From Thermotogota bacterium (GTDB lineage: Bacteria; Thermotogota; Thermotogae; Petrotogales; Petrotogaceae): a DNA stretch of 36,370 nucleotides. Numbering within the stretch: the first letter of the stretch is position 1; every line of letters starts with the position of its first letter. Location of the stretch: positions 1 through 36,370 of the forward strand of contig JBNJGY010000015.1 in assembly GCA_051748045.1 (NCBI GenBank). The letters are read 5' to 3'. This document shows positions 12,001 through 15,000 of the stretch, one piece after another. Made by a program: the position numbers.

Positions 12001-15000
12001 CTTTAACATCCATTTGGAAAGCAGTAATTCCTTCTCTTGTCCCTGTTACTTTAAAATCCATGTCTCCCAAATGATCTTCTATTCCTAAAATATCTGTTAA
12101 AACAACATTTTTATCTTCTTCAAAAATAAGACCCATAGCTATACCAGCAACATGTTTTTTAAGAGGAACACCAGCGTCCATCATAGCTAATGATGCAGAA
12201 CAAACAGAAGCCATAGATGAAGAACCGTTTGATTCTAATATTTCTGAAACCATTCTTATTGTATATGGAAATTCATCTTCTGTTGGAATTAAATTCTTAT
12301 GTGACCTTTCTGCGAGATGTCCATGTCCAATTTCTCTTCTTCCTGGACCTCTTAAAGGTTTTGATTCACCTGTTGCATATGGTGGGAAATTATAATGAAG
12401 CATAAATCTTTTATCTTCATCAGAAAAAATAGTATCTACCATTTGTACATCCATAGGTGCTCCCAATGTAATTATACCTAAAGATTGTGTTTCACCTCTA
12501 GTGAATAAAGCAGAACCGTGAACTCTATTAATTAATCCAGTTTCACATTCAATTGGTCTAATCTCATCTGTTCCTCTTCCATCTGCTCTTTTATTGTCAT
12601 CTAGTATAGATCGTCTCATAGTATTCTTAAATACTTCTTCATATTTTTCGTATAAAAATCCTTTTTTCTCATTATAAAAACTTTCTGACCATTTGTCTAA
12701 ATATTTTTCTTCGAATGATTCAAAAACAGATTTTTTATATTCTGCTAAATTTTTATCTTTATTTTTTTTACCATCTACAAGCATTCTTTTCATTATTTCT
12801 TCTCTATCAATTAATTCTTCAAAATCACTCAAGAAATCTTTAGGGCATGTTGGAACTTCTACTTCCCATTTTTCTATATTAAATTCTTTAATAATTTCTT
12901 CTTCAAATTTTATAACTTCTTTAATTGCATCATGAGCGAACATCAACGCATCAACCATTTCATCTTCAGAAACCTCTAAAGATTCACCTTCAACCATAGT
13001 AACAGCATCATTAGTTCCTGCGACAATGATATCCATTTTTGATTTTTCTAATTCTTCTTGAGTTGGAAACGCTACATACTCACCATCTACATAACCTATT
13101 CTTACTCCAGCAACAATGCCATTAAAAGGGATAGGAGATAAGTTAAGAGCTAAAGAAGCTCCCGTAATACTCCATGTTTCAATGCTATCATCACCCAACA
13201 TTGAAAAAACTGTTGAAATAACTTGGATTTCATTATGAAAGTCTTTAGGAAATAAAGGTCTAATTGGTCTATCTATTAGTCTTGAAGATAAAATTGCCTC
13301 TTCACTTGGTCTTCCTTCTCTTTTAACAAAACCTCCAGGAATTTTCCCAACAGCGTAGAATTTTTCTTTAAAATCTACTGTTAATGGTAAAAAATCTATA
13401 CCTGGTTTAGGTTTTTCACTAGCATTAGCTGTTACTAAAATTGTTGATTCATTGAAATTCAAAACAACTGAACCTAAAGATTGTTTAGCCATTTTACCAT
13501 GTTCAATAGTTAATTTTCTTCCGAAAATTTCTTTTTCCCATTTTTTCATTTAATTTTCACCTCTTAATTAATATCTATTCTTATATATTCTACCATAATT
13601 AGCAGGATTTATAAAAATAAAGCGGGGCTTATTAGCCCCGCTTAAAATTTATCCTCTTATTCCAAGTTTTTTAATTAATTCTTGATATAATTCTGGTCTT
13701 CCTTTTTTCAAGTATTTTAACATTTTTCTTCTTTTTCCAACCATTGACATTAAACCTCTTCTTGAATGGAAATCCTTTGGGTGTTTTTTCAAATGTTCAG
13801 TTATATGTTTTATTCTAGCTGAAAGTAAAGCTACCTGTACTTCTACTGAACCTGTATCTTTTTCGTTGATTTGAAATTCTTCTACAATTTCTTTAGTTAC
13901 ATCATTTTCTAATCCTCTTGACATGTTGTTTCCTCCTGAATATGTATTCCTAAAACTAAGTAAAGGGTAACTCCCTAAACTGAGTAATAGGTATTTTCAT
14001 TATATTATAATAATAATAAATTGTCAATGAATTGTATGTTATAATTAATTAAAAAATGGAGGTATTAAAATGGCTTTATCAGTTTTTACTTTTTTATTTA
14101 AAGATTTTGAATTTTTTAAACTTGCTTATGATATTAGAGATAAAGTTTTTATAAGAGAGCAAAATGTGCCAAAAGAAGAAGAATTAGATGGATTAGACCC
14201 TGCTTGTATTCATTTTTTAGGTTTATATGAAAATACCCCTGTTGCAACTGCAAGGGTTAGATATATAGATAAGGATACATGGAAGGTTGAAAGAGTTGCT
14301 GTTTTAAAAGAATATAGAAATAAAGGCTTTGGAAAAGAAATGATGGAAAATATTGAAAATGAAGCTCATAAAAAGAAAGTTTCAAAACTAATCTTGAATT
14401 CTCAAAAAAATGCTATTGATTTTTATAAATCCTTAAATTATAAATCGATATCAGATGATTTCTTTTATGAAGCAGGAATACCACACATAAAAATGCAAAA
14501 AATATTAAAAGAGAGCCAAAACTAATTGGCTCTCATATTTTTATGAATTTTTGAGCATAACCTTTGCTTTTTTTGCATTAGCATATACAGTGAATCCACC
14601 GTTTAAATTTTTCACTTTAAATCCGTTTAATTTGAGTATTCTGTATGCAAAGTATCCCCTCATACCTAGTGTGCAATATGTTATATATGTTTTATTCTTA
14701 TCCAAGTTGTCTATTTTTTCTCTTAATTTTGGGAATGGAATATTAATCTCATTTTTTAACCCAATAACGTTTTTATCATTTATTTCATCTGGATTTCTTA
14801 CATCTATTAATACAGAATTTTCTAACTCTTCTAATTGATCCCATTCAATTGTTTCTATTTCACCATTCAATATATTTTCTCCGACATATCCTGCAACGTT
14901 TAGGGGATCTTTCGCTGATCCAAATGGAGGAGCATAAGCAAAATCTATATCTGTTAAATCGCTTACTGTCATATTCCCACTAATTGCAGTAGCAAGAACA

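Follow-up and report, generated by a model that had tools for sequence, protein, structure and literature searches.

The rpsO gene for ribosomal protein S15 is preceded, in the stretch of Petrotogaceae DNA analysed here (36,370 nucleotides, contig JBNJGY010000015.1, referred to as the window), by a hairpin at the predicted 5′ end of its mRNA, and the reading that we favour, with a probability of roughly 55%, is that this hairpin serves as the operator through which S15 regulates its own synthesis and corresponds in origin to the helix-H2 part of the Firmicutes-type operator. That we are dealing with an rpsO-specific structured leader is strongly supported by the comparison of sequences, and the leader is hence a good candidate for an S15 autoregulatory operator, since it is found in one copy per genome and always 5′ of rpsO, shows strong covariation, has a core resembling helix 22 of the 16S rRNA and tracks rpsO and not pnp. 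The earlier note on this DNA had proposed a new type of S15 leader; however, Bacilli, Clostridia and Fusobacteria have the same hairpin ahead of rpsO, and the Thermotogota hairpin is probably not a new type but a reduced relative of the Firmicutes (Geobacillus) S15 operator. What is new here is the phylum and the reduced, single-hairpin architecture.

Locus and fold of the leader hairpin

The features described below all lie on the minus strand. The rpsO gene (13649..13924) encodes a 91-residue S15 protein (Pfam Ribosomal_S15, 124.9 bits) and is preceded by a promoter composed of a −35 hexamer TTGACA (14022..14027) and a −10 hexamer TATAAT (13999..14004), which match the consensus at 12/12 positions with a 17-nt spacer and place the predicted transcript start at ~13992. 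The leader thus runs for ~68 nt to the ATG at 13924, which bears out the promoter and the ~70-nt leader of the earlier note; in the region as a whole TTGACA-17-TATAAT-like sites are not enriched (4 against 5.8 expected). The hairpin (13949..13991) begins 1–2 nt 3′ of the predicted start and ends 11 nt 5′ of the Shine-Dalgarno sequence AGGAGG (13932..13937), the interval being an A/U-rich spacer of 11 nt (13938..13948). An intrinsic terminator with a 10-bp stem, 7 of its pairs G-C, and a T-run follows the gene (13620..13643); a weak Rfam match to L20_leader (27.8 bits against 58.7) is this terminator and nothing more. Metatranscriptome contigs from four runs of two studies link rpsO with its leader as far as 13971–13975, while none covers 13980–14047 and none bridges 13553–13651, gaps that are to be taken as weak hints, as contigs cannot show transcript ends. 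In both studies contigs break off halfway through the hairpin, at 13974/13975. This may simply reflect the usual drop in coverage towards a 5′ end, but it could also be a processed end, whose formation would destroy the hairpin.

The element folds as one irregular hairpin of 43 nt, matched by covariance model R2 at 13945–13994 (E 4.7e-11). Positions 13991–13988 pair with 13952–13949, 13985–13983 with 13957–13955, 13981–13979 with 13961–13959 and 13976–13973 with 13967–13964, enclosing a loop at 13972–13968. This series of stacked short helices has a folding energy of −16.8 kcal/mol (z −1.88), which taken alone is weak evidence, because 7 of 200 shuffled sequences fold equally well. Its most conserved part is a pseudo-symmetric 5′-CUCRG/5′-CUKRG box (C-G, U·G, mismatch, G·U, G-C), represented in the window by CUCAG on the 5′ side (13980..13984, family consensus CUCRG) and CUUAG on the 3′ side (13956..13960, family consensus CUKRG). 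Among 73 leaders the first C-G pair is invariant (73/73) and is followed by U·G in 59, U-A in 11 and C-G in 3; a central C·U mismatch is found in 52/73; on the other side the G-C pair is likewise invariant (73/73), next to G·U in 40, A-U in 29 and G-C in 4. At least one G·U step is present in 61/73 leaders and none in 12/73, the window being without one, as both of its candidate steps are C-G/U-A (A13957-U13983 and A13981-U13959). Of the stacked helices with a C-G/U-G step that had been proposed, the stacking therefore holds for the window, whereas the U·G pair belongs to its relatives (59/73 and 40/73 at the two steps). Invariant GG/CC pairs are located 7–9 pairs from the core, which corresponds to about one helical turn.

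The hairpin is always placed at the predicted 5′ end of the transcript. In all 60 relatives that have no tRNA upstream, a −10-like hexamer ends 3–14 nt (mode 7–8) 5′ of the first paired base, the 5′ flank of the hairpin in Thermotogota leaders amounts to only 1–3 nt, and in 11/71 leaders the 3′ end of a tRNA directly adjoins the hairpin. An imperfect inverted repeat immediately downstream of a promoter could in principle be a DNA operator, that is, a palindrome at +2 to +44 bound by a repressor. We give this explanation hardly any chance, as the conserved G·U wobbles (59/73 and 40/73) and the C·U mismatch make sense only in RNA of the sense strand, and in one Thermotogota family the element is preceded by a tRNA and not by a promoter.

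Distribution and covariation in Thermotogota

A search of 151 whole genomes of the phylum with model R2 returned 113 matches at E≤0.01, one per genome, and 113/113 are directly upstream of rpsO and on its strand; no further copy next to another gene was found in the about 640 Mb searched. Within the family, the hairpin is carried by all 24 genomes that have rpsO, so that the 13 genomes of 7 genera given previously understate a far wider spread. The 38 genomes in which R2 has no match belong to families f5 and f6 and to parts of f7, f10 and f11; in 4 of them rpsO was not detected either, and the others bear divergent, weakly scoring hairpins at the equivalent site.

The gene pnp follows rpsO in 93 of the 138 genomes in which both were found, and in E. 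coli the same operon contains a hairpin targeted by RNase III and PNPase. The element could accordingly be the site of another protein acting on the rpsO-pnp unit, such as RNase III, PNPase or a transcription-translation factor, although the E. coli hairpin is located downstream of rpsO. This we consider very unlikely, since the hairpin is retained in 9 of 11 genomes in which pnp lies far off on the same contig, and in the window a terminator separates rpsO from pnp, with no RNA contig spanning 13553–13651. The hairpin tracks rpsO, not pnp.

A further explanation is that the hairpin stabilises the rpsO mRNA by shielding it from 5′-end-dependent RNases, or serves as a cleavage site, with no feedback by S15. 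Its constant location at the very 5′ end (−10 box 3–14 nt away in 60/60, an abutting tRNA in 11/71), the RNA contigs that end within it and the Shine-Dalgarno sequence left free all agree with such a role, which we nevertheless judge improbable: a generic stabiliser would not call for a mismatch, wobble pairs or internal bases that never vary, no other gene has a second copy in about 640 Mb, and the core is similar to the part of helix 22 that S15 binds.

The S15 operator that we favour is also consistent with the pattern of sequence change. In a MAFFT alignment of 40 hairpins, 87.8% of the cells are paired compared to 75.8% in shuffled alignments, and changes on both sides of a pair occur in 91 cells compared to 36.8±4.5, while slid controls are only 29–57% paired; in a model alignment of 73 sequences, 186 cells change on both sides against 65. 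The earlier count of compensatory change in 2/12 pairs holds at family depth, but at the depth of the phylum both-side changes are seen in 7/15 pairs (MAFFT alignment) or 8/16 pairs (model alignment). The promoter and the ribosome-binding site were excluded from the hairpin alignments and the invariant columns sit within the hairpin, outside those two signals.

Relation to known S15 leaders and to helix 22

Ribosomal protein S15 is a textbook example of a protein controlled through many mRNA structures that are unrelated to one another, and the rpsO operator of Geobacillus stearothermophilus or G. kaustophilus was reportedly described by Scott and Williamson in 2001 and 2005. The kinship with this group was evaluated with model R3, derived solely from 12 non-Thermotogota hairpins (the subset alignment A6; an all-Bacilli MAFFT alignment, A5, was set aside because it placed Bacillus-like sequences structurally out of register). 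The leader of the window is matched by R3 at E 6.9e-9 with 39.2 bits, over 30 further leaders of Thermotogota are matched at E<0.01, and R2 in turn matches hairpins 5′ of rpsO in Bacilli at E 1e-5 to 0.02. Against 80 rpsO loci from many phyla, the matches of R3 are confined to Bacilli, Clostridia and Fusobacteria, the hairpin upstream of rpsO being found outside Thermotogota in many Bacilli, some Clostridia and a few Fusobacteria.

The passages available from the published account of the Firmicutes S15 RNA (Deiorio-Haggar et al. 2013, PMC3849166) describe an RNA that overlaps the start codon and forms a junction of three helices, the AUG lying in the loop of H1, GGAGG in H3, and H2 being a long helix in which a >90% conserved G-C pair lies beside a variable G·U (R·Y) pair; no S15 RNA is reported there for Thermotogae. 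Both RNAs are located in the rpsO 5′ UTR, the H2 pattern is that of the Thermotogota core (C-G 73/73 beside a variable U·G, G-C 73/73 beside a variable G·U), and the taxonomic spread of the modelled hairpin is the same as the one given in those passages. From the textual description and the matching distribution we infer that the hairpin of Bacilli is the published H2. The main Thermotogota type differs in being a single hairpin with a 5′ flank of 1–3 nt and a free Shine-Dalgarno sequence, lacking the three-helix junction; the MFE folds of the Thermotogota leaders show no further conserved helix, and the complement of the Shine-Dalgarno sequence occurs in 9/77 of their loops compared to 11/77 control segments, whereas it occurs in 19/26 loops of Bacilli compared to 4/26 controls. 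Family f6 is an intermediate form, having an anti-Shine-Dalgarno sequence in 7/14 loops.

These differences could also be read as an independent origin, in which case the element would still be an S15 operator and its likeness to Bacilli would reflect convergence on the same S15-binding determinant instead of common descent. S15 regulators are reported, in the passages available, to arise easily and repeatedly (PMC5100602; PMC7247131), and the absence of the anti-Shine-Dalgarno loop and of a 5′ flank in the Thermotogota form would fit with this. Nonetheless, we regard separate origins as unlikely: the likeness exceeds the 5-bp core and extends to an outer CC/GG stem, to the lengths of the stems and to the placement relative to promoter and Shine-Dalgarno sequence, a likeness that suffices for the two models to match reciprocally at E 1e-9 to 1e-5, and f6 provides an intermediate.

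The statement that the leader matches no known S15 leader is correct as far as Rfam is concerned; by R3 the leader is akin to hairpins that are probably the published Firmicutes RNA, which escaped comparison because it is absent from Rfam. A scan of the window gave no family at threshold and no S15 family at E≤10, the best match over the hairpin being SpF01 (E 2), and with Rfam 15 the rpsO loci of Bacillota match only RF00114, the E. coli-type leader. Among 15 diverse relatives, 5 score 19.3–32 bits with RF00114, short of its gathering score (39.5 bits), and membership of this family was rejected, as the sub-threshold score comes mostly from unpaired columns of the coding region and the first helix falls in three different registers. 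The two leaders share a hairpin 5′ of the Shine-Dalgarno sequence with a C-G/U·G step, which cmscan aligns in register in relative L058, but the window has no match at E≤10 and no conserved pseudoknot between loop and coding region was seen, no systematic scan of the coding region having been made; a 6-nt match to the loop in the rpsO coding region of the window is, on reading by eye, lost in the closest relatives. The actinobacterial and mycobacterial element, as the available passages describe it, is a pseudoknot wholly upstream of the initiation site (Slinger 2014, PMC4137082; Aseev 2021 via PMC10931766). It has in common with the present leader this upstream location, a U·G/C-G motif proposed to be read by S15 and reported as crucial in E. 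coli and mycobacteria (PMC10931766), and a likely block of ribosome binding; it differs in that the Thermotogota leader consists of one hairpin and shows no hint of any further pairing.

Since no 16S rRNA was found in the assembly of the window, nor in that of genome G001, the comparison with helix 22 relies on relatives. According to the available passages of PMC4684408, the S15 site of the 16S rRNA includes a G·U/G-C motif one turn from the junction of helices 20, 21 and 22. In the relatives helix 22 reads C-G, U·G or U-A, internal loop, G·U, G-C, and the leader core, with its C-G, U·G, 1×1 mismatch, G·U, G-C, resembles it. The leader, however, is without the three-way junction, has an irregularity of 1×1 where the rRNA has about 3×2, and carries two steps in opposite directions in a pseudo-symmetric core. 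In the window A-U replaces both G·U pairs, so that the 5′-GG-3′/5′-CU-3′ step with G·U beside G-C is absent and both steps are A-U/G-C, which counts against recognition by S15. On the protein side, loop 2 of S15 (HLKxHPKD[FY]HSRRG) is conserved. A co-variation of leader and rRNA was not upheld: in f6, helix 22 of G050 has G-C/G-C in place of G·U/G-C and the leaders are divergent, but G052 of the same family keeps the G·U, and the f2 genomes G032 (C-G step) and G040 (U·G step) have identical helices 22.

Proposed mode of action and significance

We infer that the leader would bind S15 and mediate repression. S15 in excess of what the 16S rRNA takes up would bind its own mRNA through this 5′-terminal hairpin, recognising the invariant core (C-G, U·G/U-A, mismatch, G·U/A-U, G-C), with its likeness to the G·U/G-C region of helix 22, as well as the invariant GG/CC pairs about one turn further on. 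Only about 10 nt lie between the helix and the Shine-Dalgarno sequence, and bound S15 would thus stop loading of the 30S subunit by competition or possibly by entrapment. The distance from the last pair of the hairpin to the Shine-Dalgarno sequence is 2–13 nt in all 73 leaders, with a median of 10, and this sequence is not consistently paired in the predicted ensembles; sequestration by alternative folding is not supported, given a median unpaired probability of 0.53, and repression would thus rest on a putative steric effect. An operator consisting of H2 only is plausible, because the G·U/G-C motif alone allowed three of four S15 homologues to bind and regulate the Geobacillus RNA, according to the available passages of PMC4684408.

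A more specific version of this proposal, which we put forward tentatively and would not yet rely on, is that the hairpin of Thermotogota suffices on its own as a minimal S15 operator: a single 5′-terminal helix whose pseudo-twofold core has two opposed G·U/G-C-like steps, each about one turn from the invariant GG/CC pairs, so that S15 might recognise it whichever way round it lies, or two molecules of the protein might bind at once, and it would act as a pure steric block beside a free Shine-Dalgarno sequence. Such a hairpin may be the ancestral core of the three-helix Firmicutes operator, or its reduced form. Being phylum-wide and akin to the Firmicutes operator while having only one of the three helices, the element is relevant to the question of convergence against divergence of S15 regulators and suggests which part of that operator is the conserved recognition core. 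At about 43 nt it is also a candidate for a natural S15-binding RNA of very small size from thermophiles, suited to structural work, and a putative cis-regulatory RNA, of a family missing from Rfam, that can be annotated ahead of rpsO in roughly three out of four Thermotogota genomes sampled.

Pairing of the loop was considered as well. For the main type, a pseudoknot between the loop and the Shine-Dalgarno sequence or the spacer was discarded, the longest complementarity being no better than that of shuffled loops (with the Shine-Dalgarno complement at 9/77 against 11/77 in controls). In Bacilli and in f6, complementarity between loop and Shine-Dalgarno sequence stays a lead.

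The rpsO leader hairpin in the window

In the window the leader of rpsO is predicted to fold as a single irregular hairpin (13991-13949, minus strand), stacked from base to loop as CCUA/UAGG, UU/UU, ACU/AGU, C.U, AGU/ACU, UU/UU and AGGG/CCCU, with the loop AGUUA. This hairpin is part of a real, phylum-wide and rpsO-specific structured leader, whose most likely role is that of an S15 translational operator working by steric block: S15 bound to the hairpin would obstruct the message next to a free Shine-Dalgarno sequence (SD). The promoter and leader described in the earlier note are indeed present, as a perfect sigma-70-type promoter (TTGACA, 14027-14022, and TATAAT, 14004-13999, with a 17-nt spacer) is followed by ~68 nt of leader before the ATG. 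Next on the same minus strand come the SD AGGAGG (13937-13932), rpsO (13924-13649; 91 aa; Pfam Ribosomal_S15, 124.9 bits), an intrinsic terminator (13643-13620) and pnp (13549-11438; PNPase domains), while a GNAT acetyltransferase gene starts divergently at 14070. Between the rpsO terminator and pnp lies a promoter-like site, TTTATA-17-TAGAAT with a TG extension (13587-13615, minus strand), and no RNA contig joins the two genes across 13553-13651; pnp thus seems to have its own promoter. A match to the Rfam L20_leader family at 13608-13689 (minus strand; 27.8 bits against a gathering threshold of 58.7) was discarded, being merely the rpsO terminator stem and its T-run.

Metatranscriptome contigs from four runs of two studies span rpsO and its leader up to 13971-13975, leaving 13980-14047 uncovered, and none reaches pnp. 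Although contigs cannot show transcript ends, this fits a monocistronic rpsO transcript starting near the predicted site. Contigs of both studies stop within the hairpin, however, at 13974/13975, where the rpsO mRNA may have a processed end.

Taken alone, the window hairpin has an unremarkable fold energy (z -1.88, equalled by 7 of 200 shuffles). Covariation was analyzed in larger sets. The first alignment, A1, comprised 40 hairpins of like length, picked from ~125 by the boundaries of minimum free energy hairpins, aligned with MAFFT and scored against a hand-drawn structure. Standard pairs occupied 87.8% of its cells versus 75.8% after shuffling, and both sides had changed in 7 of 15 pairs and in 91 cells (36.8±4.5 in shuffles); slid controls were 29–57% paired, and RNAalifold returned 12 pairs, 4 of them compensatory. 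The covariance model built from A1 (R1, filters off) matched the site upstream of rpsO in 68/97 loci at E<0.01, including families absent from the seed. From 100 of 130 loci, near-duplicates being dropped, the 73 matching R1 at E≤0.05 formed alignment A2, which, being fitted to the model and so biased toward it, had 85.8% of cells paired (72.8% in shuffles), 8/16 pairs with changes on both sides and 186 such cells versus 65 shuffled. The two compensatory pairs in twelve conceded by the earlier note are therefore exceeded in both wider sets.

Three features of A2 are invariant or nearly so: the CC/GG pairs at the base of the stem, two G-C pairs at its apex, and a core box, 5'-CUCRG-3'/5'-CUKRG-3'. 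The outer core pairs are C-G and G-C in 73/73 leaders each; the second is U.G in 59, U-A in 11 and C-G in 3, and the fourth G.U in 40, A-U in 29 and G-C in 4, around a central C.U mismatch (52/73) that is elsewhere C-G, U-A or U.G. The frequency of wobble pairs in the core indicates that the constraint acts on the sense-strand RNA.

Spread in Thermotogota and position on the message

BLAST of the leader gave matches adjoining rpsO across the whole family. The gene was found by tblastn in 147/151 genomes of the phylum and, with upstream regions taken for 100 further genomes, inspection by eye showed the hairpin again in almost every family, with numerous paired substitutions. A model built from A2 (R2) and searched against the 151 whole genomes gave 113 matches at E≤0.01, at most one per genome, all 113 on the contig and strand of rpsO; 112 stop 0-42 nt 5' of the tblastn rpsO match, and the other overlaps an over-extended one. 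By family (f1 to f11), the matches number 24/25, 23/25, 1/1, 2/2, 0/2, 0/18, 10/16, 18/18, 24/24, 8/16 and 2/3. In the missed or weak families (26 loci) the best R2 match lies at the usual place with E≤1 in 21, nine of these having E<0.01, which points to divergent versions rather than absence. The conservation noted earlier in 13 genomes of seven genera thus holds, its extent being far wider (113/151 genomes).

In 73/73 leaders the SD begins 2-13 nt (median 10) and the start codon 14-28 nt (median 23) past the last hairpin pair, and in 60/60 promoter-bearing leaders a -10-like hexamer ends 3-14 nt (mode 7-8) ahead of the first pair. In 11/71 leaders, all from f8, two bases separate the hairpin from the 3' CCA end of a tRNA upstream. 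In every case the element therefore occupies the very start of the message. As there is also no promoter between tRNA gene and hairpin in f8 (L077-L088, e.g. L084:293-414), rpsO is probably co-transcribed there with the upstream tRNA, whose 3' processing would create the 5' end of the rpsO mRNA. Pairing of the SD in predicted ensembles was not consistent (median unpaired probability 0.53). The gene pnp follows rpsO in 93/138 genomes; of the 11 in which the two genes share a contig but lie far apart, 9 retain the hairpin, both exceptions being from f6.

The leaders of f6 (L062-L067, L123-L130) carry a divergent hairpin whose loop, GAGCCUCC, is anti-SD. The S15 of this family has changes in its helix 2 and its loop 2, with IKH replaced by IRQ throughout and HSRRG by HTRRG or HSRHG in some genera; helix 22 of 16S rRNA has G-C/G-C instead of G.U/G-C in one f6 genome (G050, L139), and another keeps the G.U. 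In one genus of f10 (L111-L116) the full form is replaced by a shortened hairpin of ~30 nt, CCCCAGUCUGGGG..CCUGGGCUGG, lying after a tRNA, a terminator-like hairpin and a TGnTATAAT promoter and reaching only E 0.15-0.6 with R2.

Relation to 16S helix 22 and to known S15 operators

No 16S rRNA was found in the window's own assembly. In 12 relatives from six families, helix 22 comprises C-G, U.G or U-A, a purine internal loop, G.U and G-C, its 5'-GG/5'-CU step being kept in 11, and the leader core resembles a compact, pseudo-symmetric version of it. S15 recognises a G.U/G-C motif set some ten pairs away from the three-way junction (PMC4684408); in the leader, an invariant GG/CC set stands at a distance of 7-9 pairs from each of two opposed steps. 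Loop 2 of S15 is conserved. Against this likeness, G.U is missing at both steps in 12/73 leaders, including that of the window, so that the C-G/U-G step proposed there earlier does not hold.

As the earlier note had it, the leader matches no known S15 leader in Rfam: no family of Rfam 15 reaches its threshold on the window. Sub-threshold matches to RF00114 in 5/15 diverse relatives (19-32 bits, gathering 39.5) were rejected as membership, since the scores come mainly from coding-region columns and the placement of the first helix varies. In the passages available, PMC4137082 and PMC7247131 list S15 leaders from E. coli, Thermus, Geobacillus, Alphaproteobacteria, Actinobacteria, Chlamydia, Flavobacteria and two archaeal cases, without the string 'thermotog', and a 2024 review adds mycobacteria (PMC10931766, in part). 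Passages of PMC3849166 describe the Bacilli S15 RNA from the majority of Bacilli, from fewer of the Clostridia and from two Deinococci and two Fusobacteria, naming Thermotogae for L20 and S4 only, and those of the T. maritima transcriptome paper (PMC3636130) do not mention rpsO or S15. Our literature search found no description of a Thermotogota S15 leader; supplements, outside its scope, might list one.

An S15-alignment scan of species genomes yielded 80 rpsO loci from many phyla. At the position upstream of rpsO, R2 matched several uncultured members of the Bacilli and their relatives (L170, E 1e-5; L193, L195 and others), with core and placement as in Thermotogota. In 30 evenly drawn Bacilli, long upstream hairpins mostly carry a 5'-CUNGG/5'-CUNGG core, and R2 gave four matches at E<0.05, all rightly placed. 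A model seeded with 12 hairpins (A6), none from Thermotogota, scored 39.2 bits on the window leader (E 6.9e-9), and over 30 further leaders of the phylum matched it at E<0.01. Among the 30 Bacilli this model, R3, found 14 at E<0.01 (seven being seeds); in the 80 mixed loci its matches fall in Bacilli, in Clostridia, in two Fusobacteria and in a record titled 'Kosmotogales bacterium', from the sister family f2. Given that this spread equals the published one and that the hairpin fits the text description of helix H2 (a long stem in which a G-C pair, over 90% conserved, adjoins a variable R.Y pair; PMC3849166, in part), we read the window hairpin as a putative H2-like core of the Firmicutes-type S15 operator. 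Hence the earlier proposal stands as regards an rpsO-specific structured leader and is not supported as regards a new type: this is probably a reduced variant of a known operator type, and what is new is the reduction to a single hairpin and its phylum, Thermotogota, for which the literature searched reports no such leader.

Unlike the Firmicutes operator, the main Thermotogota type has no 5' flank to close a junction. Its loops also differ: a Watson-Crick complement of the own SD is enriched in Bacilli loops (19/26, control 4/26) and occurs in 7/14 of f6 (control 2/14), whereas in the Thermotogota main type it is not above control (9/77 versus 11/77). The Bacilli counts suggest a loop-SD pseudoknot there, perhaps the published helix H3. 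An operator consisting of H2 only is plausible, as three of four S15 homologues reportedly needed no more than the G.U/G-C motif on the Geobacillus RNA (PMC4684408, in part).

Loop-SD pairs in Bacilli (L225-L254, L164, L170, L193, L195, L223) include ACUCC/GGAGU, UUCC/GGAAG and UUCCUC/GAGGAA. Weak matches to Rfam rliD, a Listeria antisense sRNA (20-25 bits; L193, L195, L211, L223, ~670-900, opposite strand), sit downstream of rpsO in Bacilli MAGs and are probably due to the conservation of pnpA, not to an sRNA. A record titled Candidatus Methanomethylophilaceae archaeon (L150) has a bacterial-type S15 (60% identity) and a Bacilli-type hairpin (R3, 29.7 bits), and is probably a mis-binned bacterial contig.
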